From assembly GCA_964016885.1 (NCBI GenBank), contig OZ024763.1, positions 9,982,001-10,046,000 on the forward strand: a stretch of 64,000 nucleotides of DNA. Reading direction: 5' to 3'. Position 1 is the first letter of the stretch. Each line of letters begins with the position of its first letter. The stretch is from Eledone cirrhosa. Lineage: Eukaryota. The notes below the pieces were generated by a model. That model did no database searches and was not told the DNA's origin. It worked only from the letters and a program-made list of their open reading frames with translations. A program made the position numbers and the translations under genes. Below are positions 1 through 63,138 of the stretch, one piece after another.

Positions 1-679
1 CTCAATGCGTTCAGTCATCTTGCGTGAAAACAAAAATCCAACAAGCATGCACTGGATGTCTGTACTCCATAACAGCTGGGAACTGATGCGGCCTACTGGC
101 ACAAAAATGTTCACACATGCGCAGGAGGGGTATTGCCCATACGGCATTAGTTTTGGCGGGGAAAAATAAAATCAGATACCTTTTGAATACATCTTGTATA
201 TGGTGTGTTTTAGGTACAAAGTATCCCTGCATGTTGCACGAGGTGACTAAAAGAATTGGTGTTAAAAAGGGTATTTGGCTGTCTCAAAGCATCCAACCCA
301 TGCCAGTATAGAAAAGGGTATGTCAAAGAGATGATGATATACTCATACCCTGCTGTTAAAGCAGTTCATCATCATCATTTAGCGTCTGATTTTCCTGTTA
401 GCAAGGGTTTCATGGAAGCTACTGACCTCTCAGACAGGCTGGGGGGTCTGCATCTCATTTGAGTATGGGCTTACATTATTCCAAGTGTAGAGAAATCGTA
501 TCTTTGCCACAACTGAGGGTCCTCCCAAGCCTTTGTTTAGCAAGCTTTTTATGGCTGGTGCCCTTCCTATCACCAACCACTTTACAGCGTCTACTGGATG
601 CATTTATTGTGTAGATCACCAACACAAAGTCATGCGCTTGACACAACTGAAGGGTCCTTCCAACCCTTTATTTAATTAT

Positions 680-975
680 ATAGTGCACCCCTAGCATTCG
701 CGGAATTTTCCTTAGAACCTAACTAATAATTGTTCATGGAAACCACTGCATATTCGTGGAATTGTAAATATCTTCCACAATTTTTATGTGGCAAAATATA
801 TTTTTTCAGGCTTTTTAACACTAAATTATTAACAATAAACCATATTTGCTGGCCTATATTTTACATTGTTTTGACGTTTATAGGCATTTTTATGGACCAC
901 GTCCAATATTCGTGGTTTTTCACTCTTTGCGAGTGCTCTAGAGACATAACCCCCGCGAATAACAGAGGACAACTA
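680..975 (-). mobile_element. Tigger/pogo-like MITE (another copy at ~3834-4077)
   Basis: Imperfect TIRs (tagtgcacccct... / ...gaggacaacta), TA flanks, and shared internal sequence with the other copies. Confidence 0.55.
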
Positions 976-3900
976 TATATATATATGGTAAATATACTGA
1001 TAGTAAAGAGGGGTTAAATGTCTACGATTTATATTTCTGTTTGTCTATGGTGTTTCATAGTTGTTGTTTCATTGTTTGGATTGGCAGTATGGGTAGAGGG
1101 TCGGACGCCATGCTTTCTAGCATAGTTACGTCCCTTTACAGACTGAGTTCAAATCCCACCGAGGTTAACTTTGCCTTTCATCCTTACGGGGTCGATAAAA
1201 TAAAGTACCAGTAATGTACTGGAAAATTGCTGGCCTTGTGCCAAATGTAGAAACAATTATTGGTCTTTCATCTTGTTTCTTTTCTTCCAGTTTCTGCGGT
1301 TTCCTGAAGACTTGGCTTCCATTCCTCATAGTTTTTACTGTAATCCTGCTTCTCTTTCTGTTCTCACATTTCAATTTGATGTAGACATTATGGATACATG
1401 GAACTGTTGTTGCTGCTGCCGTTTTCAGAAACAAGGGGTTTTTTTTTTTTCCTTCTGGTGGGAGGTTCATCTCCCCATCTGATTTAAATAAATATACAAC
1501 ACTATAAGCCACTCATCTGGTAGAAATAACAGCCAAACCTCCTTCACACCAGACCGTAACATTTTCTTAAGAATAGGAAAGATACATTGGATAATGTAGT
1601 CCAATATACATTGTCTATATTTTAGGACAGGATGGTCATGGCTGGAACATCTTTGATCTGAATCATAGGATCTTAGCTGACCTGGTGCTAAACATTAACA
1701 AGGAAGGACACATTAGATAATGTAGTCCTAGATATACTATGACTTTATCAAAGACTAGATGGTCACAGCTAAAACATCTTTGATCATGGATCTGTCCGAT
1801 CAGAGCTGACCTGGGGCTAAACAGCTATAACAACAACAACAACACATTGTTTAAATAACTTGAAGGAAGAACGCATTAGATAATGTAGTTCTAGATACAC
1901 TGTGCCACTGTTTTCATCTTAAGTCAGTCAGATCAAAGCTGACCTGTGACTAAATAACAAGAAGGAAAGATACATTAGGCAATGTAGTCCTAGGTATATT
2001 GTGTCAACTCAAGCTAACCTTCATCTAAACAACAACACATCTTAAGTCTGCCAGATCAGAGCTTGTGACTAAACAATAACTACATCACTGATTTAAATTA
2101 GAAAAAATTTAAATAACAAATTATTTTTTAAATGCCATATATACTTGTTTGTAGATAAGTCACGTTTTATTTTACTTTAAAAAAATCGAGTGCTTAAAGC
2201 CACATACAACTTATCTGCTGAATATTAACCCTTTCATTACCATATTTCTTATGAAAGACACTGCCTAGGTTTTTCAAATAATTTTGAAAATAATCCAGAA
2301 TTTGGAGGGATTTAGTAATATAACTATCTTATTCATTATTAAGTTGCTGTTTGGTGCATAACTTAACAAAAGGTCTTACATTAAATTATGATAGAAGGTT
2401 TTTAGATAAATGTAAACAGTTTTGTATCATAGAGTGAGGGGCAATTTGGTAACATAAGGCTTAAATAATAAAATGTTATATACACAAAGGGAATGAGACA
2501 TGGTAACTATCTCATTTATGAGTTATTTTAGTCATTCAAAAACTTCATTTCCTGGTATAAAAATGTTTGTCACATTGCTTTTAACCTTCATTTGGGACCA
2601 GGCTAGAAATGGCGAGATGAAAATTTTGAAACTAGGGGATAAATGTAAAATGAAATTAAGTTTTTGTGTGTGTCTTTGAATGGTTAAAATGATTCTTCCA
2701 TTGTGTCATTGCTTTAGCTTCACCACACATTCACAGATCAAGTACAAATCCAAAATGGTAAATATCAATTTTGAAATTGTATGGTTTGGGACATGAAATG
2801 TTGCTAGAACTGTTTTTTTAACAGAATCTTTACCATTATTGGTCTCAGTTTTAAACTGATCATTATCAAGTTAATGTTTCTATATTTGGCACAAGGCCAG
2901 CAATTTAAAAAGGAGAAAGTTGATTAATTCAAACCGAGTGTGTTACTGGTACATAATCATATTAATAATAATTGTTTCTACATTTGGCATAAGGCCAGCA
3001 ATTTAAAGGGAAAGTTGATTAAATCACCCCCAGCGTGCTACTTTATTTGACCGGTCCACCCTCGTCTGGAGGGAAGACAAAGCTAACCTCGGCAGGATGT
3101 AACTCAATGCCACAAAACATTTTGTCCGACTTGACAGGATGTAACTCAATGCCACAAAACATTTTGTCCGACTTGATTCTGTCAGTCAACTGCCCTTCAT
3201 GTTAATAAATGTTTCTGATTCAGGCACAAGGCGAACAATTTTGAGGGGAAAGTTGATTAAATTGACCCCAGTGCAAAGTTGAGTTAATAATAATAATTGT
3301 GATAATGCTGATGATGATAATAACATTAACAAACTCAAAATTCTATATTTTCAAACAAAAGAAAAATGATTTTTTTCTTTGTTAATCTATTTATTGATTT
3401 TTTGTTGTTATTTTTTTGATATTTCAATATTGAAACTGTAAAAAATGTGTTTATTTGTTGTTGTTTTTTAATTTAGTTCTCCTATTAACTCCCTGTGTGT
3501 TTGTGTATATATATATTTTTTTACAGACATAAAAACGATGATATATATATATATATGTAAAAGGTAAACAGAAATAACAAGACAATCGGTACAGTATATG
3601 GAAGGAATATATTAGGTTAACGCAAGCCAGCTGCTAGTTTACCTAAACACACACATGAAGTCACCCTATCAGTAAATGTTTGTTATTTCTATAAATTTAC
3701 AACCCAACATTAACATATACACACGTGTCTGTGTTGTATACATTAATTTCAACTCTTCTTATTAATAACTACATTGTTTCTTTCTATGGACTATGTTGAC
3801 AAACCTTATTTAGTCATTCCACCCTCATACATATACAGTTGTCCCCCAGTATTCACAGGGTTCCTAAAGCAACCGCAAATATTGGACATGGTCTATAAAA

Positions 3901-5067
3901 ATGCCTATAAACATAAAATATGATATATAATTTAGCATTAAAAATATAAATTGCCACAAAAAAAGCCATAAAATAATCACGAAAGATATTTACGATTCCG
4001 CAAATATGCGGTGGTTTCCACAAATAATTATTAGTTAGATTCTGCGGAAAGTTCCGCAAATGCAGGGAGTACACTACACATACACAGATAGTGAATCCTA
4101 TAATAATGTGTCTTAGACTTCTTGTAATATAATTCCATTCATATCTTGGAGTCTTTGTCCAAATATGACATCAATGTCAGTACTTGACTGGTACTTTATT
4201 TTATCAATCCTGAGAGCAGAAATGGCAAAGTTGACCATAGCAGGATTTAAACTCAGAACAGAAAGGGCCATAAAAGTACATGAGAAAATACCATCTTTAA
4301 ATCTAATATGCTTTATACAAATATTAAATTGACCCCAGTGTATGACTGGTATTTTTACATTATTGGCCATTGAACTCAGAACATTAAGAGCTATTAGTAA
4401 ATGCCACAATATGCTTTCTTTTATAATCACATCTTGAATGCTTTTATAAATATTATACCAATATCTGGAAGGGAGAGAATAACATCAGTGTAACAAAGTA
4501 TGTGACCTTTAAAATACAGGTATAGTCCATCTTGTATTATGACATGCAGGGATATGGTTTACCCATTTTAAACTGGATACACATTGCAGCAAATAATCTT
4601 GATGATATATACATGTATGTACCTGTAACTCTTGATGGAATGCCATAGTGGCATACAGCATCTTGGGCATTTTAATCCTGGCAGGACCCATCGTCTCTCC
4701 AGGTCTGAACCAGAGAAGTAAGAAAGAGATATGGGGGAAGAATCTACACCAGTACTTTTTTTTTATCGACTGCAAAAGGATAAAAAGCAAAGTTGATCCC
4801 GGTAGGATTTGAACTCTGCACAGAGAGATAGAACAAACACTACACTCTATCTGATGTTCTAACAACAATGTAAATTTGCCACCTAAAGAATATAACATAG
4901 AATGTGAAAGTCTGATTGCATAAAATATATATTTACAACAAATAACATAGAATGTGAAAGTTTGATTGCATAAAATATATATTTACAACAAATAACACAA
5001 AAAACAAGAAAAAATTGTCAACAGTGGTCCCCTATTTTAATATCCAGTGTCAAACATTGATTCGCAA

Positions 5068-5688
5068 CTATGTCACTTTCATCTCAGCCAAAGCTAAAAC
5101 GTTTTTCTCTTGTAGCAGTTGTTGGTACTGAGTCTGAAGTTTCTGGATCTGTAATTGAAGGTTAGCTAGCTCCACAGAAACCTCAACAGCAGATTTGTAA
5201 TTTTTCTGAGAATAACGCAAACTCTGTGGCACCAAAACACCAAACCAGTTGAGAGGATCTTTGCTCATGGGTTTCTGCTGTTTTTTGCTTAAGCCCTTGT
5301 CATTGGATTTGGTGTCATCTGATGTTTGTTCTTGTTTGTCATTGTCACTATCGCTGTTCTTTGCAACGTTACGTTTCCGTAAAGTATCCAATACAGGAGT
5401 CTCGACGCCATCCTCGCCAACGTTGGACACCAGTGTAAAGGCTGTCTCCAATCCCTCATTTGAGCATTCTACTTTGACAGATGCTTGCATCTCACGTTCC
5501 GTGATTTTCAAGGAGCTGATCGATGTCACCCCACGAATATAACGTGCTCGGGACATATGCAAGTTTCCTGACTTTAAGTTCTGCTCCAACATGGCCTGGC
5601 ATTGGTAGTATTTATCTAATACACTGAGGAATTCTAAAAGGACTTTGTCAATATGTTCTGAAAGAGTTTGCATTTCTGACAACGGCAT
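5068..5688 (-). CDS. CCDC115: Coiled-coil domain-containing protein 115 / V-ATPase assembly factor VMA22, single coding exon
   Basis: 206-aa ORF with family-like N-terminal 'LEQNLKSGNLHMSRARYIRG' and the hallmark 'DPLNWFGVLVPQSLRYSQKNY' followed by a C-terminal coiled coil. The ATG is directly preceded by a branch point/polypyrimidine/CAG acceptor (ctaacctttcttctgttccatgtttttcag|ATG). Confidence 0.9.
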   Translation of the reverse strand: MPLSEMQTLSEHIDKVLLEFLSVLDKYYQCQAMLEQNLKSGNLHMSRARYIRGVTSISSLKITEREMQASVKVECSNEGLETAFTLVSNVGEDGVETPVLDTLRKRNVAKNSDSDNDKQEQTSDDTKSNDKGLSKKQQKPMSKDPLNWFGVLVPQSLRYSQKNYKSAVEVSVELANLQLQIQKLQTQYQQLLQEKNVLALAEMKVT

Positions 5689-7085
5689 CTGAAAAACATG
5701 GAACAGAAGAAAGGTTAGACAATAGTATTAGTCATTAACATATTTCTAATGAAAGACACTGGTGTTTGGGACATAACTTAACAAAGTTTCTTACATAATA
5801 TGTATTTTTAGTTAAATATAAACTAACCCTTTCGTGAACACATTTCTAATGAAAGACACTGCCCATGATTTTCAAATATTTTTATTATGCTGGTGTTTGG
5901 AACATAACTTAACAAACGTTCTTACATAATATTATATGTTTGTTTTTATCTAAAAGATAAAAACAAACAGTTTTTTCTCATAGAACCAGGAGCAGTTTGG
6001 TATCAAAAAGGATTTAAGAAACATCACTTGGCTTAGTGTATATAGGTCTATCATTTTTAAAATGGTAGGGTCAATTTGAGGGAGATTTGGCTACTACATC
6101 GAGTATATTATGTAGAAACTCCCTCACTGGTTCATGAGACATTACATTGTGATTTGAGAGAAATTTGGTTACAATTTCTTGTCACATTGAGGCTACCTTA
6201 TAGCTATAGCATGGTCACCTTATCATACCCCAGGTCTGTCAAGTTGCTGAAAATAGCAGTTAAATTTACCATTAATTAAACTCTACTATCTGCAAAAATA
6301 ACTGACATTAAATAATAGATACACAGTGCCTGAGAGAAAGAAAAGAAATTCAGGAAGATCTTTGATCATAGGTCTGCTCAGAATTGACCTTGGGCTAAAC
6401 AACTACAACGAAGGAGACTACATGGTCACTTGATCTACTAGAAATAGCAGCCAAATCTTCAAATTACATTCTACTATCTGGATGGAATATCTGTCATCAT
6501 GGATAGCCTGGGGCTAAACAATGACACCACAATCCAACTAAGGAGCTTCTACGTGATCACTCAACCTACCTGAAATGACAGCCAAATCTCCCTCAAATTA
6601 CACATTAGTGTGAACTTTACAAGCTTTGATCACAAGCCTGGAGCTAAATAACCACAACAAAATAATTATTCAGCCAGCCTATTTCAATAGAAATAGTCCA
6701 GTGGATGAAGGGAATACCACTTAGAGAGAAAGGAAGACAATGGATTGCAGGGATAGAGTCAGTGATGAATGTTGGGAAGAGAAATGGAATGAGATGGTTG
6801 AGTCATGTTGAAGAAGGATAAAAGTGATTGGGTGAGCTAGCCTTAACCCTTTAGCATTTAAACTGGTCATATCCAGCCAGAATTCTCTCACCTCTTTCTG
6901 TTCAAACTGGCTGCTCATACTGATGTTAAGGTATTGTTCTCAAAATCTCATAGATTTGATGTTATGTGAGGTAAAGCCACGAAATACAATAGTAAATATA
7001 GAGTAATGTAAAGGTTAAAACATGTATTTCAAGAACAAAGTGTTCTCCACTAAGTTTTCCTGCTGCTTACCTGTAAATCTGGACT

Positions 7086-8573
7086 TCATGTACACCCACA
7101 AGGGTTACCACAGTTCATGTTATCACCCCACATATGTGAGAGCTCATCAGTAGTGAGGTCTGGCATAGAATACATGTCAGGTGAACAGGTTTTCATACAA
7201 TGCCATCTCTGGTCGTCAACGGTCACTGGACCAAACGCTGCTGCTAACCAGATTCCCATGGTCACATCTTCTCCCTGATAAACTTTCAAGTGGTCAGAAG
7301 CATTTGCTAACCATTGACTAATGTCTGATGTGAACACATAGCCAGATCCACAAGCAAATTTTGGATAGACCAAAGAATTATAATGCCATTCTGCCCACTT
7401 GCCATATCTATCAACTGCCCAGTTGGAACGGAATTTACCAAACCAAAATGTTTTGTACTTGATTCTCTCTAAGTGATTCAATATGTGTTTCAAATTGAGA
7501 AAGCAATCGTCATCGGACTTCAACACATAAGAATAAGTGTGCTTTCCCATCAGCTGTTTCTGGGCTAGGAGCAACTTGTTTGGCAAATTTCTGTAAACAT
7601 CTACCTCTTGAATAATCAACAAGTCAGAGAAATTCTCCTGCTCTTTTAACAAATGTTCTTCTTCTTGGTTTTTCTCTGCCAACCAATGCTTGTATCGTTG
7701 AGCGCGACTTGTTATATGTCTCTCTAAGCCAACGATATCATCTACACTGTATATAAAATTTGTAACCAGCTGCGACCAGCAATGTACACTGGAGTAACTT
7801 TGGTAAAAGTAAACAACAGCGCTACCTGGTAGAGGTATACAAAACACTGTCGTGCTGGTTTCATTATTGTAATATGAAAAATCCGTGCCTTCAGGTATTT
7901 CAACTGCCAGGGTTCCTTCGAAACCTTTAGGGAGTAGGAAAGTCTCCACAGGTTGGTAGTAAAAAGTGTCTTTTAAAATCCCAGGGTCAATGGTGCTGAA
8001 GTGGACACGGGTAACCTCCTCTTGGTTGGCACTGTTTAGTAGAACTACAGGAATCCGTGGAAGGCTGGGGTTAGATTTAACAGATTCATGAAGACCAAAT
8101 TTTCGAATGATAATTGGATGAAGAATACGGAAGGCTAGAAACAGTTTTAAGTGGGGGTAATTCGATGCCATAATTTCTAAACCCACAGGCTGAGGTTCCA
8201 AGTTGTAACTTTGATGGATATATTCACCATCATCTGTTGAACTAACTAAAGCTACCTGGTTGTCGTTTGACTGCGGGTGGGCAATCTGTGGTGTCCAAGA
8301 GAGACATGAGTAGGAGTCCACCCTATCTTCAAATGGTACTGGACAAGATTTATCTCCAACCACAAAATACAGTTTAATCTGGTTGCTTAACTCCCCAAAG
8401 ACGTCACATCCCCATGTATTTCTGATGGTCATTCGTTGTTCAAAGTTCTCTCTGGCTGAAGACACTAGGATGATTAGCTTGACATAGTGTTTTGTAGACA
8501 GTTTAGGATAATAAAGTAAGACAGCAGCAAGAATGAATATTAGGGCTACAGATGTAGTCACTAGACTCGCCAT
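7086..8573 (-). CDS. B3GALNT2: UDP-GalNAc:beta-1,3-N-acetylgalactosaminyltransferase 2 (GT31), intronless CDS
   Basis: 495-aa ORF: N-terminal TM anchor, 'SSARENFEQRMTIRNTW', 'DVYRNLPNKLL', DxD motif 'YVLKSDDDCFL', 'YPKFACGSGYV', 'YQGEDVTMGIWL', C-terminal 'CGNPCGC'. Stem insertion and C-terminus match B3GALNT2. Confidence 0.9.
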   Translation of the reverse strand: MASLVTTSVALIFILAAVLLYYPKLSTKHYVKLIILVSSARENFEQRMTIRNTWGCDVFGELSNQIKLYFVVGDKSCPVPFEDRVDSYSCLSWTPQIAHPQSNDNQVALVSSTDDGEYIHQSYNLEPQPVGLEIMASNYPHLKLFLAFRILHPIIIRKFGLHESVKSNPSLPRIPVVLLNSANQEEVTRVHFSTIDPGILKDTFYYQPVETFLLPKGFEGTLAVEIPEGTDFSYYNNETSTTVFCIPLPGSAVVYFYQSYSSVHCWSQLVTNFIYSVDDIVGLERHITSRAQRYKHWLAEKNQEEEHLLKEQENFSDLLIIQEVDVYRNLPNKLLLAQKQLMGKHTYSYVLKSDDDCFLNLKHILNHLERIKYKTFWFGKFRSNWAVDRYGKWAEWHYNSLVYPKFACGSGYVFTSDISQWLANASDHLKVYQGEDVTMGIWLAAAFGPVTVDDQRWHCMKTCSPDMYSMPDLTTDELSHMWGDNMNCGNPCGCT

Positions 8574-9221
8574 GGTATTATGTCAGGGTCTACTTGTAAT
8601 TTAATAAACATTAGAGAGTTCAATCATTTTTGACTGCTGTGGTGAGTGAAAACACTAAGGCAATGATTCCCAGAGGAAGTCTGAGCTAAGTTCACAATTT
8701 CAAGTACTTTGTTCTAAACATAATATACAAACACTGGTATACATTCTTCTCTACATACACACACTTCTCTCTGTATAACAATCTTGGAAGGGAGTAACTG
8801 TAGCAGGGATTTTGTGAGAAAATGCATTTAAATAAAAGGGGGCCTTATTAGTGAAAGGTTTGGGAACCACTACTCTTAAGATTCAATTCCTTGTCCTTTC
8901 CTCTGGAAAAGAGATTGTGGTGTTGTAGAATGTGCTATATACAAGTAGATATTAATGGCAAACACTGGTGCCAGAAATGATATTCATGAATTATATATAT
9001 GGAAGGATATGAGATATAATTGAAATAGGAAATTTTAATGTGTTTACATGGTGTCATATCTGGTGGGATTGCATTTGACCCATATTTACTAATGGCATCA
9101 AACTACCTGAATGAGTTTTTTTTCTTTTTGTATTACCCTTATTGATTGAACTTAAATTTAATTTCCAAATTCAGTTTTTGAGAAATTTAAAGACCAGAAT
9201 TATTTTTCTTTTAATACTGAT

Positions 9222-9560
9222 GGAGGCACATGGCTTAGTGGTTAGAGCATTGGCCTTGCAATCGAAAGGTTGTGGGTTCAATTCTCAGACCGGGTGATGT
9301 GTTGTTTCCTTGAGCAAGACACTTTATTTCACATTGCTCCAGTTTACTCAGCTGTAGAAATGAGATGATAGGACTGGGGTCCCTATCATTCCACTGCAAA
9401 GTGGACGTGTAGGTGCCATGGCAAAAAAGCACCCAGCACTCACTGTAAATGAGGTTGGTGTTAGGAAGGGGATCCAGCTGTAGAAATCAAGCCAGAATCA
9501 GTTCCCGTCCCACCCTTGGAAGCAGGGAAAAGCGGACGTAAAATGATGATGATGATGATG
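9222..9560 (+). mobile_element. tRNA-derived SINE with an (ATG)n tail (copies at 29197-29533 and 60247-60580, both minus)
   Basis: tRNA-like head GGAGGCACATGGCTTAGTGGTTAGAGC...GGTTCAATTC and an RTE-like 3' tail; near-identical dispersed copies. Confidence 0.85.
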
Positions 9561-10699
9561 ACTGTCTTTCCAGAATAAAAATATTTACAATCTACATTTC
9601 AATAACAAGGAAATATTTAAAGAATGCGAGTATTAGTTTTTTTTTGTTGTTGCTATTCGTTTTCACATTTTTCCATAATAAAACTATTAATATTTGCTAT
9701 CTCGATTATGTCTCAGATATCCTTTCATACTTGCAAATCATGATCATGAATTTTTTTTTTTTTTTCTTTCTTTTTGGAAACCGTTTAAGTTTACAAACAG
9801 TTGTTTATTGTGAGGAGTTGCAATGGTGTGGTAAGTTGTGTTTGTCTGAAGTCAGTGGTGCTGAGGTGGTAATTCTGTAATGTATGGCACCAAATTCATC
9901 AAAAACCTCCAAGTACCTCCCTCCTCTATGTAAAACTGTCAAGTAGCCGGTAGTCAGACAACAGAAGTGTAGAACTGCCTGCCTGGAAATTGATGTAAAC
10001 CTTGATAAGATTATAAGGTGCCAAATAGCAGAGTTGAGTAGAATAATAATAATAATGATGATTTCATTTATTGGCCACAAGGGCCGACATATAGGGGACA
10101 ATACAAAGGGACAGTGTGGGTTTACAATAAAATTGTGTGAAAATACACAATAACAAAACCAGTTTAACAATGAAAACATACAAAAATAATATATATATAA
10201 AAATATAAAATAAGTGAAGTGCCCACCACTTCGAGAGAGCCTTCTCCTCCACAAGTTAACCAGCCTGATTTCATTTCATTTTTTGGCCACAAGAGCGAAA
10301 ACAAACAAAACCAAAGGAGCTTGAAAACAACAGTAAGAAAACAAAATGAAGAATTTATATCATGGTGCTTAACATGATAAATGCACTCAGTGTAAAGTAG
10401 TTGGTGATAGAACGAGCATCCAGCCATAGTAAATCTGGCAAACAAAGGGCCAAGAACACTCTTCAGCTATGTCAACTTCTCTAACAGTAGAGCATGGAAT
10501 CATGAGTCGGGCCCTTCGCCCACCTGGAGTTCAGAGTTCCTCTCCAACCCAAGCTCGAAGGGAAAACGGACGTTAAACAACGATGATATATATTGTTTTA
10601 GTATTTGTCTTGCAAGTTTCTCAATGTGAAATTGTACGTTGAAACAGTTATACACTGAAAATGTACTAAACTAACTGAGCAATAGATTAGTTAGCTCAC

Positions 10700-11050
10700 A
10701 AATAATGTTTCTATTTTTGGCACAAGACCAGCAATTACCTCAGTACATTACTGGTACTTTATTATATCGACTCCGTAAGGATGAAAGGCAAAGCTCAGCT
10801 CGGCAGGATTTGAACTCAGAACGCGAAAGGCCATAACTCTGTTCTGCAAAGCATGGTGTCCGACCCTCTACCGATACTGTCAACCCACTGCCCTAATAAT
10901 AATAATGGTTTCTTATATAAGCACAAGGCCAGCAATTTTGAAGGAGGGAAAAGTCGATTAAATCGACCACAGTATGTGACTGGTACTTTATTTTATCGAC
11001 CCCGTAAGGATGAAAGGCAAAGTTAACCTCGGCGGGATTTGAAACCGCCC
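10700..11050 (-). mobile_element. Abundant short SINE family (also ~1077-1262, 2870-3280, 34670-34855, 35175-35570, 57995-58130)
   Basis: Recurrent 'ggcacaaggccagcaatt...ggtactttattttatcgaccccgtaaggatgaaaggcaaagttaacctcggcgggatttgaactcaga' with a B-box-like GAGTTCAAATCC. Confidence 0.8.
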
Positions 11051-11716
11051 AATAATAAAACCAAAGTGATAATCAACACACACGTATATAAATATGTGTG
11101 TGTGTATATATTTATACATATATGTAACCAAACCTAGAATAGACAATCTATGTGGAAGGTGCGAGCTGATCAGTCTTCATCAACAATACAATATCTTCAA
11201 CTACAATATCAAACATGACCTTCACTAAAAACAAGGAGATTTGGCTGCTGTTTCTAGCAGTCCAAATGACCATGTACAGACTTTTATTCGCTCAGCGAAT
11301 GTGTACGTGTTGTTGTTGTTGTTGTAGGTTTGGTTCTAGATTAGCTGCGAATGAGATCATTCTATCTGTCACTATTCTGTTTTTATCCTTGACATAGTGT
11401 ATCCAGGGCTACGTCCTTACCGTTTCCTCGAAACGGTAAGGATCTTTCGTTACTATTTCTTTCTTTCTATCTGTCTGTCCCTTTCAAACACACACACACA
11501 CATATATATATATATACATACATACATATATCTACATACACACACACACATATATATATTGTGTGTGTAATTTTATCAACTTGGTTCATAAAGTATCCTA
11601 CTATTTAAATCAGTTTGGTATTCATTCTATCGATTTCTATTCGTTGACCTGCAATCTTCTGATATTTAAATTGACAGAACATAACTGATTTTAAATTTTA
11701 TAGAAATATAACTTAC

Positions 11717-11820
11717 AATGTTTTGTTATCAGCTCTGATTTTTCAGTCGAATTCTTACAGCGAAACAACGTCATCGGTCGGTCAATGGTTATCTCCCCTC
11801 ACTTCAGTTCCTGCTCACAT
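11717..11820 (-). other. Putative non-coding first exon of the B3GALNT2/CCDC115 unit
   Basis: Minus-strand donor ATT|GTAAGT at 11716-11711 next to a CpG-containing, repeat-free segment. The 5' boundary is a guess. Confidence 0.4.
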
Positions 11821-13316
11821 TTAAAGCCATTTTTATTTTACTTTATTTTAAATATGAAAACACTCTAAAATATACAGGCGTAATTTTTTTTTACATTATT
11901 AACCTGTTTTAGAGATGTTTCCATTTTTATGTAAATTATTGACTGGTAACACAGCGAATTAAAAGAGTCTGTAGAGCCTTCGAATAGAATGCTTTGCGGT
12001 ATTTGTTTCAGTTCTCTGCTTTCTGAATTTAAATTACGCCGAGATCAACCATTATTTTTTTTTATTTTACTCTTCTGATTATCGAATTATTTCCCCTCGC
12101 TCGAATATTCCATAATATAAAATGGAGTTATTGGCCTTTGAAGTTTAACGACTCCGTATAATAAATAAGTTTCGAATTGTGTCGCATGGCAAGTATATAT
12201 TAAAAAAAATACTATTAAGCAGCACAATAAAGAAATAAAATTCTACATATGACAATGTATGGCAGTGGTTAGTTATCATTTTTTTTAGTATGAAAAGTGT
12301 AACTTGAATAAAGTCTCGGGACAACGAGAACTGACTCGTCGGCAGTGTCATATATTTTGATATATATATATATATATATATTTCAAATGGCATTCTACAC
12401 TAGACTCGATATATTACAGGGCTTATTTAGAATGCCTTTAGTTTAAATATAAACTTTCTTAACAGAAGAGACGTAGCTGAATGAAGTCTCGTGTCAACGA
12501 GAACATCTGTTCCTACAATTTGAATCCTTCACTCTCTCACTGATATTTAATTGTTTCCCTTAAATTTTAATATATGGTGATTTATAATTAACAAAATTAG
12601 TTGTTGGTCGTAATAACAATATGAAAGGCTAAAATCAACCACTCCCTCCCATTTCCTCTTACTTTTATTATTTAATATTTTTTTTCTTGCAATATTTGTA
12701 TAATCTCCCCCCCCCCCTCCCCGTATATATGGAAGTGGCAGCAGTTGTAAATACATAGTAGTAGTGGTAAGGAAGTAAGAATGACAACAGTACTGTCAAA
12801 AATAATATAATATAATATATATATAGCACAGAATATAATATATATTTACTGTACATAGCACAGAATATAATATATATATATATAACAGAAATTATTTGTT
12901 TAAACTTTTAACCAATGTTAATAAATAAATGTTTGTTCAACAGTTTCATATAATGTATATATACTATTAATATATATATATACACACTCTATTACTGGTT
13001 TCAGTCATTAGTAACAGTAGTAATGAACAATAACAAAGCATCCAATAGTAGCAGTAGTAAGAGTAGTGTAGAATAAGGAAGTAAGAGCGGTTGTAGTAGT
13101 AATAGAAGTAATAGTAGTGGTGGTGGTGGTGGTAACCGTAGTAGTTGTGGTGTGTGTATACATGAAAGCCCAGGAGCTGCCGGAATATCCCAACATGAAG
13201 GGTTAAAACTTAATAAACAGACAAAGAAATCCATAAGACACACACACACGGGCTAGAGCTGAGCAAGCTAAACTATAGCTACAACCATCCCGTCTCACAG
13301 GGCCCACCAGGTTGTG
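11820..13316. promoter_or_regulatory. Probable divergent promoter region between B3GALNT2/CCDC115 and FBXO42
   Basis: Head-to-head arrangement of the genes, local CpG enrichment, and a duplicated 21-bp motif at 12311 and 12484. Confidence 0.4.
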
Positions 13317-13569
13317 ATGGAAGACGAAGATGAAGACCACCACATCAAGAAAACCCTGCAACCAGACGAAACGGTCCTTGCCCAGATATTGCGTAAGGAC
13401 GATGACAGCGAAGGAGGTGCCGATGATGATTGTTGTCAAGTAGAACGAGGTGTTTCCATTCGTGACTTCCCAGAAGAATTGGTCGAACATATATTCTACT
13501 ATTTGTCACCATACCGGGATTTACAATCGGCAAAGCTAGTCTGTAGGCAGTGGTACCGCCTTGCCTTAG
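13317..13569 (+). CDS. FBXO42: FBXO42 coding exon 1 (F-box)
   Basis: ATG at 13317; F-box '[36 protein letters not shown]'; donor TAG|GTAAGA at 13570, phase 1. Confidence 0.9.
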
Positions 13570-13707
13570 GTAAGACACACGCGCACACACACGTATATAT
13601 ATATATATATATATATACACATTTATATATATACATATTTATATATATATATATATATATATACACACCCTTTCTGTCTTTCTATCTATATACACTTATC
13701 TATTTAT

Positions 13708-24449: not shown

Positions 24450-25797
24450 ATTGAATGTAGGGGCCAAGAGGCAATTAAGGAGATGAAAAATGGTAAGGCA
24501 GCTGGACCGTCGGGGATAGTTGCTGAGATGCTGAAGGCATCAGGGGACGTAGGGACTAAACTGGTTGCACACATCGTCAATCAAGCTATATATGGTGGTG
24601 TCATACCCAAAGACTGGTGCAGCAGTATTCTCATAAATTGCTACAAAGGTAAAGGGGATGCTCTAGAGAGGAACAATTACAGGGGCATAAAGCGGATGGA
24701 TCAGGTTATGAAAGTGGTAGAAAGGATATTAGCGCATCTGATTAGAGAAAGGGTCAAATTAGATGAGATGCAGTTTGGTTTTGTGCCTGGGAAAAGTACA
24801 ACAGATGCCCTCTTCTTAGACAACTACAAGAGAGGTTCTTAGAAAAGAATAAGCCACTATACTTAGCTTTTGTTGACCTAGAGAAGGCCTTTGATAGGGT
24901 ACCCTGATCTGTCATCTGGTGGTCCCTAAGGAAGCTAGGTGTTGAGGAATGGCTTGTGAGGACAGTGCAAGCTTTGTACATGAGGAATTCCAGATACAAG
25001 TAGGAGTACATCACGGTTCGGTCCTCAGCTCGCTCTTGTTCATTATAGTCCTCCAAGCCATAACAGAGGAGTTTAAGACTGGTTGCCCATGGGAACTTCT
25101 CTATACTGACAATCTGGTTCTTATAGCAGAATCAGTAGAGGAGCTAGAGAATAAATTCTGGCTATGGAAACAGCAGTTGGAAGCAAGAGGATTGAGGGCG
25201 AACCTAGTTAAGACAAAAGTGTTGATAAGTAGAAAAGAGGACAAAACTCTGATTCCGTCAGGGAAATGGCCATGTTCGATATGTAGAAAAAGAACTGGCA
25301 TAAATTCTATAAAATGTACACAATGCAGATCTTGGTTACACAAGAGATGTAGTGGGATAGCCGCAAACTAACAGGTAGGGAAAAATATGTATGCAGTAGA
25401 TGTACAGGGAAATTTGACAGTAGAAGTTGCAGTGATAGACACATTTTTCAAATGCAGGTAGGATCTATAGAAGTGGTGGATAGCTTCCGGTACCTAGGAG
25501 ATCAGATTAGCATGGGAGACAGGTGTTCCGAGGCCATAGTATCTGGAATAAGGACGGGTTGGAAAAAGTTTAGGGAGCTGCTTCTTCTGCTGACAAAGAA
25601 GGGTTTCTCCCTGCATACAAAAGGCCGGTTATATGATGCCTGTGTGAGATGCGTGATGCTGCATGGTAGTGAGACATGGGCAGCAACTGCAGAGGATATG
25701 TGACGGCTGGAGAGAAATGAAGCAAGTATGCTCCGTTGGATGTGTAATATCAATGTACGTGAACAACCAAGCATGGATGAGTTGAGAGAGAAACTGT
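24450..25797 (+). mobile_element. RTE-clade LINE RT fragment (degraded)
   Basis: 'GKAAGPSGIVAEMLK', 'NYRGIK', 'QFGFVPGKST', 'FVDLEKAFD', 'LLYTDNL', Cys/His finger, 'MLHGSETW'. Confidence 0.88.
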
Positions 25798-26040: not shown

Positions 26041-27350
26041 CAGGGTGTGGACTATATTTGTTCACAATTTTCAACTGCTAATTTTATGCAAATTTTTTTT
26101 ACTTCCGTTGTCACTCTTGTCTTCATAAAAACAGTGACTATATTTCCATTATTTATTTTCAGAATAATTGATTATGAATAATTTCTAACCTCCAAATTTG
26201 TGGAAGAGACACGGAGTTCTTCTCGGAATCCGCACCGGGAGGACAAATAAGGAAATTTCAGACTTTCTCAGCGTCAGCAGGAGAATGGTGGAAAAGGTCA
26301 GAAAGGAATTGGAAGATTCAGAATTCGACTACGAAGCAACATCAGAGAGGAAAACACATGATGGACGATCTAACGCCTTCAGAACGCCTGAGTTCGTCGC
26401 TGAAGTTCAGGATATCATCAACAATGAACCTAGCAAGTCGATGCGTGCCATTGCAAGGGAGAAAGGCAGCGTGGATGAAAAGCTCATTAGGCTGGTGGTA
26501 CATGAAGACATTCGCTACGTTTCATACAAGATGAGGAAAGGACAATTTCTGTCAAAGGCGATGCAAGAAAAGCGACTGAAGCACACAAAGAAGCTGATCA
26601 ACAAGTTGAAACACCCACTGGAGCCAGACATGCTGTGGTTTTTCTCCGACGAGAAAAACTTCTGCCAAGACCAGAAGATCAACTCCCAGAACAACAGGTG
26701 GCTCGCTGTCTCATCCAAAGACGTGCCCAGAGTCATGCAGACAAAGTTTCCAGCGACAACATTGGTCTTAGGTGTCGTCAGCAGTCAAGGTGACATCGTG
26801 CCACCTCACTTCTTCCCTGAGGGCCTCAAGCTGAACACCGATGGCTACATCCGCGTTCTAAGCGAGGTAGTAAAGCCCTGGATCGACCAGGTAGCTGCAG
26901 GTAGGCCGTACGTGTGGCAGCAAGACTCAGCGCCCTGCTATACCAGCCGAAAGACCCAAGCCTGGCTGTCAGAGAACTTCGTCGACCACACTTCACCTGA
27001 CATCTGGCCTCCCAGCTCGCCTGACTGCAACCCCCTCGACTTCTTTGTGTGGGGTGCAGTGGAACGAGACACCAACAGATCTAGCTGCAATATGAAAGAC
27101 GATCTGAAGGCCAGGATCACAAGTGCCTTTAGGGGCCTAAGTTGGGGGACAGTGACGAAGGCCTGTAGCCGGTTCCGAGGCCGCCTTCAGGCCGTCATCA
27201 AAGCCAATGGCGGGTTTATCGAGTGAGATCGAAAGAACAAGTCATGAAGACAAACTGACCCAAGTTTGATAAATATATCTTAAAAAATAAAACTACTGTG
27301 TTATTTTTTCCTAGACAGTAGTCTTGCGAACAGATATCGTCCGCACCCTG
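26041..27350 (+). mobile_element. Tc1/mariner superfamily, DD37D (maT/Bmmar1-like) transposon, near full length
   Basis: 27-bp TIRs CAGGGTG(T/C)GGAC(T/G)ATAT(T/C)TGTTC(A/G)CAA with TA flanks. The transposase at 26198-27226 has FSDEK, QQDSAP and SPDCNPLD, with 37 residues between D2 and D3. Confidence 0.92.
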
Positions 27351-59381: not shown

Positions 59382-61688
59382 TGTGTGTATACAACACTCA
59401 CATATATATATATATCATACACACATATATATATATACACATACATGTATTTTTGTGTGTGTGTCTGTGTGGAGGAGGCTGCCCTGAGATTAAGAAAGCG
59501 GGAGTTGTCTTATAAAAAACTTGTTCAATCCAGTTTAGACTTGTAACGTAACACAGGTGTAACGTTGCAGACAAACAGCAGCACACACAATGTTTGCCTA
59601 ATTAATACTTACCGTTAATAACCTTTCACCTTTTTTCTACCTGCCTTCCTATACAGGTAAGACGATGAATTGGCGGAGTAGTTTAGCTGTTGGAATAAAA
59701 TATCTCAACACTGAGTTCAAATCCTGCCGGGGTCAGCTTACCTTACTTTTTTTTGTGATTGATTCTTCCTCTATTTCTCTTTAGATCAGACTTTCTCTCT
59801 CTTCAACTCACCCCCTCCCTCTCTCCTCTGTCTCACCCTCCAGCTCCAACCCCTCGTCCCCTCTATCTATCTATCTATAATTTCGGGGTGAGGGATGAGG
59901 GTTAGTTACATAACCTACCAGTCCAACAGAGGTGGTGGATTGGTGGAATTGTTACAGAATTGACCAGGTTCTGCGTGTTCTGGGTTCAAATTCTGCCTCT
60001 TTCTGCCAGTTGAAAATTCTTGGGGGATAGTATCAACAATAGAAAGACCAATGGAAACATTCCTTCTTTGGCCAGACTGCCTGGGCTGTGGGCTGTGTAT
60101 ATATAATATAAGATCAAAAGATGGTTAAAAGAGTTCCAAGTCTTTTATTATGCGCATTTCAAAAACATATTTGCATTGCTTTATTGTGCTACAATAAAAC
60201 TCACCTCCTACATATATATATATATATATATATGTGTGTGCAGGTATCATCATCATCATCATTTCATTTTACGTCCGCTTTTTTCCTTGCTTGCAAGGGT
60301 GGGACAGGAACTGATTCTGGCTTGATTTCTACAGCTGGATGCCCTTCCTAACACCAACCTCATTTACAGTGAGTGCTGGGTGTTTTTTTTTTTTGCAGTG
60401 GAATGATAGGGACCCCCAGTCCTATCATCTCATCTTATTTATACAGCTGAGTAAACTGGAGCAATGTGAAAAAAATAAAGTGTCTTGCTCAAGGACACAA
60501 TACATTACCCGGTCTGAGAATTGAATTCACAACCTTTCGATTGCAAGGCCAATGCTCTAACCACTAAGCCATGTGCCTCCATATATATATATATACATAC
60601 ATATATATATGTATACATATATTTATATATACATATATATATGTATACATATATTTATATATACATATATATATGTATACATACATACATATATATATAT
60701 GTATACATACATATATGTATGTATACGGCCGTTAATATGCATACAACACACACACACAAAAACAAGATCGCGTAGGACAGAACAAAGGAGAGGCACAAAA
60801 ACAAAGAAAAGAATCCCCAGTCACTGAAGAGGTCACAGAATGTGTGACGAAAGAACTTTGAGAATATATAAACAATCATCTGGTTGTGGAACCAACCAAC
60901 CAACTGGAAATTTATAAATTCCTAAATTTATAAATTTATTATAATAAATTGAAGTGAAAGCAACTGGTGCATGTGTTTCTTATTGGCAACATGACCCTCC
61001 CAAAGTATAACAATATCGGCTTCAACACACGTTTTAAGATAAAGAATCTTGCTAAACAAATTCAGAAACGAAATATATTTATATATATATATATATATAA
61101 ATAAATATACACGTATGTGTATGATTGTGTATAGAAGATTATATTAATAAAAGGAATTCCAACTTTGTCTGATTTACTCGTTTTATTTGATTTACTAGCG
61201 TTAATTGAACAAGTACTTTCATACCTTCGCAATCCTCAGGTTCATATTCAGTGGTGACACTTGAGAGTAGTCAATGCAGCTAGAAGCTGCAAAGTTGCTG
61301 GTCGCCCTCTTGTCTCTGATTTAAACACCATGGATTTTTATCTGTTATATTCCTTCGTTATATTTTGAATACCTGATGATTTCATACCGAATCCCGGTCA
61401 TTGAAATGATCATAGTATAATAAACCTTTCAAGGATTTACACCAGTCCAGTTTCCTGTTATTTTCTAATAATTAATTCCGTACTCGCACCACTAACTACA
61501 CTAACGAAGACGGGTGAGTTGCATTACATTGAGTGCTTTCCATAACATTACATCATGGTTGACTACACAGAATGACCAATTCTATCCAGTGGTGAACCAA
61601 CAAACCAAATAAATATATATATACATATATATGTATATATATATATATATGTATACATATATATTTATGTGTATATATATATTTATAC

Positions 61689-61721
<33 letters not shown>

Positions 61722-61722
61722 T

Positions 61723-62830
61723 GTATAGAGGAGCAGTCAGCAAAGTTAGGATTAGCAATGAGCATAGCGAGGAATTTAGCGTACAGGTCGGTGTCCAGCA
61801 GAGCTCTGTTCTTAGCCCTCTCCTGTTCATCTTAGTCCTGCAGGCAATAACGGAGGAGTTTAAGACTGGATGCTCATGGGAACACCTGTATGCAGATGAC
61901 CTCGCACTTATAGCTGAATCTATGGTAGAACTAGAGAAGAAATTCCAAACTTGGAAGCAGGGACTAGAAAGAAAGGGTCTCAAAGTCAACATGACAAAGA
62001 CTAAGGTCCTAGTAAGTAGACGAGAAAACAGAACCCAGATCCCCTCAGGGAAATGGCCTTGCTCAGTATGTAGGAAAGGTGTAGGTAGGAACTCCATTCT
62101 CTACCCCAAATGCAAACAACGGGTACACAAGAGATGTAGCGGGATCTCAGGAAGCTTAACTAAGAATGTAGGCTTCACATGCAGCAGCTGTGCTGGGACA
62201 GCAAGCAGCAAACAGCCACAGGAAACAAGTACCACCAAACTCTTGGAGGGCTCTGTAGAAACAGTAGACAGCTTCTGCTACCTAGGTGACCGAATTAGCA
62301 GCGGAGGTGGGTGTTCGGAAAGTACAATAACTAGGGTAAGAACAGGATGGAAGAAGTTCAGGGAACTACTGCCACTGCTAACTGCAAAAGGCTTTTCCCT
62401 CAAAATGAAAGGCAGACTGTATGATGCATGTATCCGAACAGCAATGTTACATGGTAGTGAGACATGGGCACTGTCTGTGGAAGACTTGCGTAGATTAGAA
62501 AGTAACGAAGCCTGCATGCTCCGATGGATGTGTAATAGTAATATATGTGAACGGCAAAGCATAAATGAATTGAGAGAGAGACTGAGCATAAGAGGAATCA
62601 AATGCTGTGTGCAGGAGAGGCGGTTGCGTTGGTATGGACATGTGACACGTATGAAGCATGACAGCTGTGTAAAAAGGTGCAGAGCATTAGAAGTTGATGG
62701 AAACCGCGGAGTGGGGAGACCCAAAAAGACCTGGGATGAGGTGATAAAAGCCAACCTTACTCAATTACACCTCTCAAAGGCGATGACACATGACCGTGAC
62801 CTCTGGCGTCACGCAGTAATACAGAACACC
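61723..62830 (+). mobile_element. 5'-truncated RTE LINE with an open 3' half of the ORF
   Basis: Uninterrupted 'VLSPLLF...LYADDL...WPCSVCRKGVG...HKRCSG...MLHGSETW...LRWYGHV...GRPKKTW'. Confidence 0.9.
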
Positions 62831-63138
62831 CGACCCGCCCATGGGTACAAGCCGAAACTGAAGTATATAGACAATATGCCCCCACACCCTCCCACTGTAA
62901 AGTGGACGTGTAGGCGCCACGGAAAAAAAAGCACCCAGCACTCCCTGTAAATTAGGTTGGTGTTAGGAAGGGCATCCAGCTGTAGAAATCAAGCTAGAAT
63001 CAGTTCCCGTATGAGCAAGACAAGGTCAGCCGACCGGACACTGCTCACAACAGGACAACCCATCCTACCCATGCTAGCGTGGAAGAACGGACGTAAAACG
63101 GTGATGATGATGATGATATGTTTACATATATATATATA

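Follow-up and report, generated by a model that had tools for sequence, protein, structure and literature searches.

The window analysed here is a stretch of 64,000 nucleotides from Eledone cirrhosa (contig OZ024763.1, forward-strand positions 9,982,001 to 10,046,000), and all coordinates below are positions of this window. It contains, at one minus-strand locus, two separate and complete open reading frames (ORFs) for distinct, unrelated proteins: a single-exon ORF for the enzyme B3GALNT2 is situated inside intron 1 of the same-strand gene CCDC115. A single processed mRNA carrying both ORFs is strongly implied by contig edges, by a simulation of contigs and by the switch of a RefSeq accession in a related species. 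The locus is best read, with moderate assurance, as an old intron-free retrocopy of B3GALNT2 that uses the CCDC115 coding exon as its 3' untranslated region (UTR), and probably the CCDC115 promoter as well. The parts of the locus on which this reading is built are the following.

8573-7086, minus strand: B3GALNT2 ORF, 495 aa, single exon, intact, with a good Kozak context (ACCATGG).
7085-7071, minus strand: 15-nt tail between the B3GALNT2 stop and the donor, read from the sequence.
7070-5689, minus strand: intron 2, 1382 nt, with donor GTAAGC, branch point CTAAC, pyrimidine tract and CAG; X4 records 18 and 17 (see below).
5688-5068, minus strand: CCDC115 (Vma22) ORF, 206 aa, single exon, intact; the ATG is formed by the first three bases of the exon.
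11717..12070, minus strand: candidate non-coding first exon (X4 record 24), its 5' limit being the end of a contig and not a mapped start site.
11716-11711, minus strand: donor of intron 1, ATT/GTAAGT, from the sequence and the exact edge of X4 record 24; rank 26 of 432 GT sites.

The two products align with their relatives over their full length. B3GALNT2 contains the Galactosyl_T domain (PF01762, E 6e-21) and is 69-70% identical to Octopus B3GALNT2; CCDC115 contains the Vma22/CCDC115 domain (PF21730, E 2e-20) and is 69% identical to the protein of Octopus bimaculoides. The identity of the locus proteins with Argonauta is 58%.

Splice sites were ranked over 12340-5000 (432 GT and 434 AG sites) with a rough weight matrix, the weights of which were approximated from recall. 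The B3GALNT2 stop (TGA, 7088-7086) is followed by 15 nt and then by the donor CAG/GTAAGC, the intron starting at 7070; this donor ranks first of the 432 GT sites. The CCDC115 ATG is preceded by CTAAC at 5718-5714 (branch A 27 nt upstream of the exon), a pyrimidine tract and CAG/ATG at 5688, and this acceptor ranks second of the 434 AG sites. Both arrangements, as well as a first-exon donor at 11716, had been put forward in the original prediction and are found exactly where it placed them. The probability of having GT, GT and AG by chance at three given positions is about 2e-4.

Four sequencing runs of one study (X1-X4) were available. None is on record as RNA; X4 was taken as RNA from its contig edges. 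X4, X1 and X2, i.e., three of the four runs, were compared with positions 5000-12340. The share of the words of 5000-8750 is 0.89-0.90 for X1-X3 and 0.63 for X4, the predicted exonic share being 0.62. The contigs of X1 and X2, two runs read as DNA, cross 5688, 7071, 8713 and 11717 uninterrupted. In X4, record 24 matches the genome over 354 nt (11717-12070) and continues past the donor 11717 with 30 non-genomic letters; record 18 matches over 523 nt (7593 to 7071) and continues past the donor 7071 in the same manner, again with 30 letters and with no unspliced alternative at that place; record 17, i.e., the CCDC115 contig, begins precisely at 5688. Three contig edges of X4 coincide with the predicted sites 11717, 7071 and 5688, a better agreement than chance would give. 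An overlap of 30 letters is what neighbouring contigs built from 31-letter words are expected to have. X4 has no cover at the intron positions 6071, 6382, 10174, 10680 and 12249, which is recorded here without being counted as evidence. The depths of the X4 contigs (57.2 for CCDC115, 31.3 for exon 1, 3.1-5.7 for the B3GALNT2 pieces) would make the included form the minor one, but they are not relied on either, as depth cannot rank genes.

Eight transcript sets were simulated as contigs (k=31). Since the data supplied the outer ends 12070 and 7593, only the overhangs and the start at 5688 are tested. A sole set gives all three edges (384 nt, 553 nt and a start at 5688), namely exon 1 joined to CCDC115 together with B3GALNT2 joined to CCDC115. 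At least one edge is missed by every set with polyadenylation in intron 2, without skipping, with a retained intron or with a cryptic exon at 6329. Models A, E, F and G reproduce the geometry of the skipping junction (overhang of record 24, start of record 17). Judged from this geometry, the exon 1-CCDC115 junction is very likely correctly identified, and the B3GALNT2-CCDC115 junction only slightly less so. The original prediction held that inclusion of B3GALNT2 gives a two-ORF mRNA and skipping a CCDC115-only mRNA: the contig geometry supports the junctions 7071 to 5688 and 11717 to 5688 which this supposes, while the joining of exon 1 to 8713 is not seen.

The arrangement appears to be kept in other cephalopods. 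An accession normally passes to an overlapping gene model. In O. bimaculoides XP_014780875.1 is a B3GALNT2-like protein (497 aa) and XP_014780875.2 is CCDC115 isoform X2 (218 aa), so the two models overlapped in that species. Both genes lie there on one sequence of 26,644,807 nt, and among at least five CCDC115 records one inherited the accession of B3GALNT2. In O. vulgaris the two proteins have consecutive accessions (CAI9741109.1 and CAI9741110.1) on one sequence of 41,231,014 nt. Two further pairs of relatives, P0004/P0016 (each on a 249,348-nt sequence) and P0121/P0135 (each on a 3186-nt sequence), give a hint of linkage, not a proof; with about 50% identity they are probably from squid or cuttlefish. 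The N-terminal extensions of the CCDC115 relatives differ from one another and change immediately before the conserved start, which would fit a splice acceptor at that point in these relatives too. Argonauta CCDC115 is not among the matches listed. Some side observations concern the same proteins. CCDC115 isoform X1 of O. bimaculoides is longer by 6 residues at the N-terminus. The 28-aa N-terminal extension of P0121 was considered as a homologue of exon 1 and rejected (best score 24, shuffles reaching 29). The current B3GALNT2 of O. bimaculoides (XP_052832836.1, P0129) has only 372 aa, and its N-terminus is unrelated; an older model, P0130, has the full length of 497 aa. The discrepancy is probably due to a break of assembly or annotation.

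Outside the cephalopods the linkage is not found. B3GALNT2 and CCDC115, matched by name among the best 120 of the 161 matches of one protein search, are on different sequences in all nine non-cephalopod lophotrochozoans compared (Gigantopelta, Mya, Patella caerulea, P. vulgata, Mactra, Pinctada, Mercenaria, Saccostrea and Watersipora). Seven of the nine comparisons are between chromosome-scale sequences; the two others involve small scaffolds and are little informative, and the Pinctada B3GALNT2 match is partial. Linkage of the two genes, the conservation of which in other cephalopods and molluscs had been named as a check, is seen in O. vulgaris and O. bimaculoides and does not extend to these nine species. 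Both human genes are tied to glycosylation disorders, and a co-regulation on this ground had been proposed. It must be considered unsupported: the genes are not linked elsewhere and the common link to glycosylation disorders is therefore probably a coincidence, B3GALNT2 having the look of an incoming retrocopy.

The origin of the intron-free B3GALNT2 was approached with 78 loci found in metagenomes, the intron positions being examined in three; none of the 78 is cephalopod-like by identity and none has a CCDC115 match. Two loci, one fish-like (L025) and one from an unrelated animal (L027), have four introns in common, at window residues 340, 380, 434 and 454 and with identical phases. B3GALNT2 of Eledone lacks all four. 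The four absent introns together with the new neighbourhood (i.e., the missing linkage with CCDC115 in outgroups, which does not settle which of the two genes has moved) point to a retrocopy, and a retroposed origin is considered quite likely. In an event so old, neither a poly(A) remnant nor a target-site duplication would be expected to survive. Among the protein matches, a single B3GALNT2 cluster represents the two Octopus species and a further one Argonauta, which bears on a possible loss of the parent gene.

Several points weigh against the retrocopy reading or limit its reach. The letters of the junction overhangs are not displayed, so that both junctions are deduced; the tables of joints and of loose ends are swamped by repeats, and no splice joint is among the rows listed. 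The evidence comes from one RNA-like sample of one study, its kind not being on record, and a contig spanning two genes does not establish a single transcript. Linkage in the relatives is read from shared sequence sizes and from accession tracking, both of which are indirect. As to the origin, locus L003 lacks the four introns, and L001:2201-3640, from another animal, is a full-length B3GALNT2 free of introns, on a contig of 8.6 kb that looks genomic. Intron loss thus does not need retroposition, and an intron-free B3GALNT2 also arose or persisted elsewhere.

Further points concern the 5' side of the B3GALNT2 RNA, where two features have to be considered.

8720-8714, minus strand: candidate acceptor TTTAG of the B3GALNT2 exon, which would begin at 8713; weak, rank 95 of 434 AG sites.
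9981-9781, minus strand: possible extra 5' exon piece, the acceptor being probably 9978 and the partner donor possibly 10523 (CAG/GTGGGC, rank 4 of 432), a tentative pairing.

The acceptor motif proposed at 8713 is present; its use is not borne out, and among the predicted sites it alone has no support from the RNA-like contigs. X4 records 20 (8524-8825) and 21 (8806-9035) cover 8524-9035 with no splice at 8713, and the junction from 11717 to 8713 is not seen in the X4 contigs, which show presence and not absence. The full-cassette model with this junction predicts contigs of 355 and 59 nt, and a single one of 384 nt is observed; these contigs therefore lack the junction, whether through its rarity and a loss in contig cleaning or through the site not being used. 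For these reasons the term «cassette» is unproven on the 5' side. Moreover, X4 record 22 (9781-9981) quits the genome match at 9981 with 29 foreign letters upstream, the edge falling among the tandem AG acceptors 9982, 9978 and 9974. Another upstream splice is thereby indicated, and this suggests further 5'-UTR exons in intron 1, perhaps derived from the repeat remnant ending at 10524. Taken with the record running across 8713, the entry of record 22 near 9980 means that B3GALNT2 may have other 5' exons or a start of its own.

The same observations support an alternative first exon: B3GALNT2 would be driven from within intron 1 by a promoter of its own, which may derive from a repeat and would lie upstream of about 9035 or 9980, only the terminal exon of CCDC115 being shared. 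In its favour are the unspliced records 20 and 21, the weakness of the acceptor 8713, the departure of record 22 from the genome and the lack of a branch at the exon-1 donor in record 24. However, low-depth junction paths are commonly lost in contig cleaning; the unspliced pieces, at a depth of 2.5-3.1, could be pre-mRNA; a 5' UTR starting from 9978 would hold 24 ATGs in 1405 nt; and in O. bimaculoides it is one of the CCDC115 records that took the B3GALNT2 accession. A separate promoter is held to be improbable, and one shared by both mRNAs to be likely. A nesting in the manner of ChAT/VAChT, in which exon 1 is shared and B3GALNT2 is polyadenylated in intron 2, would require the overhang at 7071 to be a cryptic or repeat-derived exon. 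The overhang letters, not being displayed, leave room for it; in intron 2 the motif at 6329 is a strong acceptor (first of the 434 AG sites), and contigs also break at high-copy repeats there. Nevertheless, none of the models C, G and H reproduces the three edges together, the acceptors in the 6840-7020 repeat score poorly and a single AATAAA/ATTAAA occurs between stop and acceptor (at 5886), so this nesting is very unlikely. Less credible still is noise, i.e., an incidental read-through splice between adjacent independent genes: the single sample and the low contig depth over B3GALNT2 would allow it, but no unspliced alternative to record 18 exists at 7071, the donor there has the first rank and the linkage is kept in other cephalopods.

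A truly dicistronic mRNA, in which ribosomes stopping at 7088-7086 reinitiate 15 nt further on at the CCDC115 ATG and the two proteins are co-regulated, must also be weighed. The gap is just 15 nt; the human two-ORF mRNAs SNURF-SNRPN and LASS1-GDF1 are immune to nonsense-mediated decay (NMD; PMC3951408), and FlyBase has 159 dicistronic pairs (PMC4528330). Against it, the upstream ORF has 495 codons, the UGGGA core is missing from the last 100 nt of B3GALNT2, an ATG at 7089 that is out of frame with CCDC115 overlaps the stop, a monocistronic CCDC115 mRNA is deduced from the contigs and the genes are not linked in outgroups. Reinitiation after long ORFs is reported to be very rare (PMC5972666). 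With the absence of a UGGGA core and the out-of-frame ATG at the stop, this leads to the expectation that the long mRNA yields mainly B3GALNT2. Translation of both proteins from it, as formerly claimed, is unsupported and opposed by the sequence cues; little or no CCDC115 is with good confidence made from this mRNA, and co-production by reinitiation is regarded as quite unlikely. By analogy with SNURF, for which escape was argued from a stop near the junction (PMC3951408), the 15-nt spacing between stop and junction would fit an escape from junction-dependent NMD.

The retrocopy reading can then be put as a mechanism. In an ancestor of the cephalopods, an old B3GALNT2 retrocopy would have become fixed within the CCDC115 intron that interrupts the 5' UTR, and apparently replaced the parent gene. 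The non-coding exon 1 would be driven from about 11.9-12.1 kb, by a promoter which FBXO42 probably shares. In the first mRNA exon 1 would be joined straight to the CCDC115 exon at 5688 and give CCDC115. The second would contain the whole B3GALNT2 ORF, joined 15 nt past its stop to that same exon, and would start most likely at the same promoter, via 8713 or further 5' exons. There the CCDC115 exon would mainly supply the 3' UTR and the poly(A) site, with the result that mostly B3GALNT2 is made in spite of the two ORFs. The choice of splice would hence divide the output between the two proteins, without co-production. A bolder form of this proposal is doubtful, though worth stating: that across squid, cuttlefish and octopus the sole B3GALNT2 is an enzyme-coding cassette exon of CCDC115 with no independent mRNA, its tissue-regulated inclusion being a conserved switch between a V-ATPase assembly factor and alpha-dystroglycan glycosylation; ribosomes might also reinitiate on the mRNA that includes it.

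Two neighbouring features bear on the ends of these mRNAs.

13317..13570, plus strand: FBXO42 F-box coding exon, head-to-head with the first exon.
5041-5036, minus strand: candidate poly(A) signal ATTAAA, common to both mRNAs; the RNA-like contig continues beyond 5000.

Exon 1 being head-to-head with FBXO42, the promoter is probably bidirectional. FBXO42 spans 13317-42045 (plus strand), and its last exon encodes a 399-aa ORF that includes a long stretch rich in Ser, Gln and His. A look-up of 10 proteins, aimed at the question which gene is the older neighbour of FBXO42, gave no species in which all three genes were represented: FBXO42 and B3GALNT2 of Sinanodonta are on different sequences, and the Potamilus and Capitella entries are on small scaffolds. 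A 50-nt unit is repeated 2.1 times (98% match) at 4892-4997, just past the CCDC115 stop and possibly in the shared 3' UTR. In intron 2 a repeat at 6891-6917 (minus strand) has a strong donor (rank 3 of 432) and an upstream ATG in frame with CCDC115 (9 more residues); a repeat-derived mini-exon ending at the 6891 donor, adding these 9 residues onto CCDC115, was considered and set aside, its acceptors scoring poorly. In intron 1 a near-perfect hairpin at 11417-11445 (stem of about 13 bp, 3-nt loop, -20.6 kcal/mol, z -4.7, 0 of 200 shuffles) covers part of the donor motif at 11420, a good one (fifth of the 432 GT sites); it could be the end of a small transposon or a regulatory stem. No Rfam match was obtained over 4500-13500. 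Elsewhere in the window, a 313-aa ORF at 26285-27226 (plus strand) resembles a Tc1/mariner-type transposase, and LINE reverse-transcriptase-like fragments are found near 24483-25371 and 61631-62950.

The interest of the locus is that a complete and conserved gene for a 495-aa enzyme would be an optional internal segment of the transcript of an unrelated gene, kept across several cephalopods, and that a relocated gene copy would survive on the terminal exon of its neighbour and probably on its promoter too. For molluscs it offers a natural setting in which the rules of NMD and reinitiation can be tested. An annotation flaw also finds its explanation here, i.e., one RefSeq accession given to two unrelated proteins in successive versions, and this suggests that pipelines admitting one ORF per transcript miss such loci in cephalopod genomes. 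No rule is overturned and no long-standing question is settled. In the open literature no paper was found on this locus or on the gene structure of B3GALNT2/CCDC115, and searches for cephalopod dicistronic genes gave nothing relevant.

VAChT is a terminal exon. In ChAT/VAChT, as in the present locus, a single-exon ORF lies in the first intron of another gene, and a non-coding first exon is shared there (PMC7524744). Here the nested ORF is apparently spliced onto a host coding exon, the proteins are unrelated, whereas the ChAT/VAChT partners act in one pathway, and the sharing of the first exon is probable. Eledone B3GALNT2 is thus not a member of the ChAT/VAChT type, since the nested ORF is spliced onward 15 nt past its stop.

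Of the 159 dicistronic pairs of Drosophila in FlyBase, 69 include a gene that is also made as a monocistronic mRNA, and sharing of 5' non-coding exons is recorded for 130 genes (PMC4528330). The likeness is that two unrelated ORFs are apparently on one processed mRNA and that one gene is also monocistronic. The difference is that the Drosophila loci usually have a downstream promoter for the downstream monocistron, or a splice disrupting one ORF, whereas here the whole upstream ORF is apparently skipped from an upstream exon; the Drosophila set (File S1 of that paper) may include an identical layout. SNURF-SNRPN and LASS1(CERS1)-GDF1 likewise have the upstream stop less than 50 nt from the junction (45 nt for SNURF, 15 nt here; PMC3951408). 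Unlike in these, the upstream ORF encodes here a 495-aa enzyme and can be skipped, and the translation of two ORFs is only a possibility. Retrocopies expressed with host exons are known from 13 human and 14 mouse cases, e.g., mouse Taf9/Ak6, and orphan retrogenes are those of which the parent was lost (PMC4772013). B3GALNT2 is similar to both, being an intron-free copy in a host intron that apparently uses host exons and may have lost its parent; the Taf9/Ak6 type uses upstream host exons, whereas here an entire downstream host coding exon apparently provides the 3' end too.

The comparison leads to the conclusions that: (i) the locus likely, though not yet fully, qualifies as a true dicistronic gene or a cassette exon; (ii) it works like a blend of the dicistronic, the ChAT/VAChT-nested and the host-exon retrocopy systems; (iii) borrowing the start and the end of a neighbour, as the relocated gene would do here, is unusual, although precedents exist.

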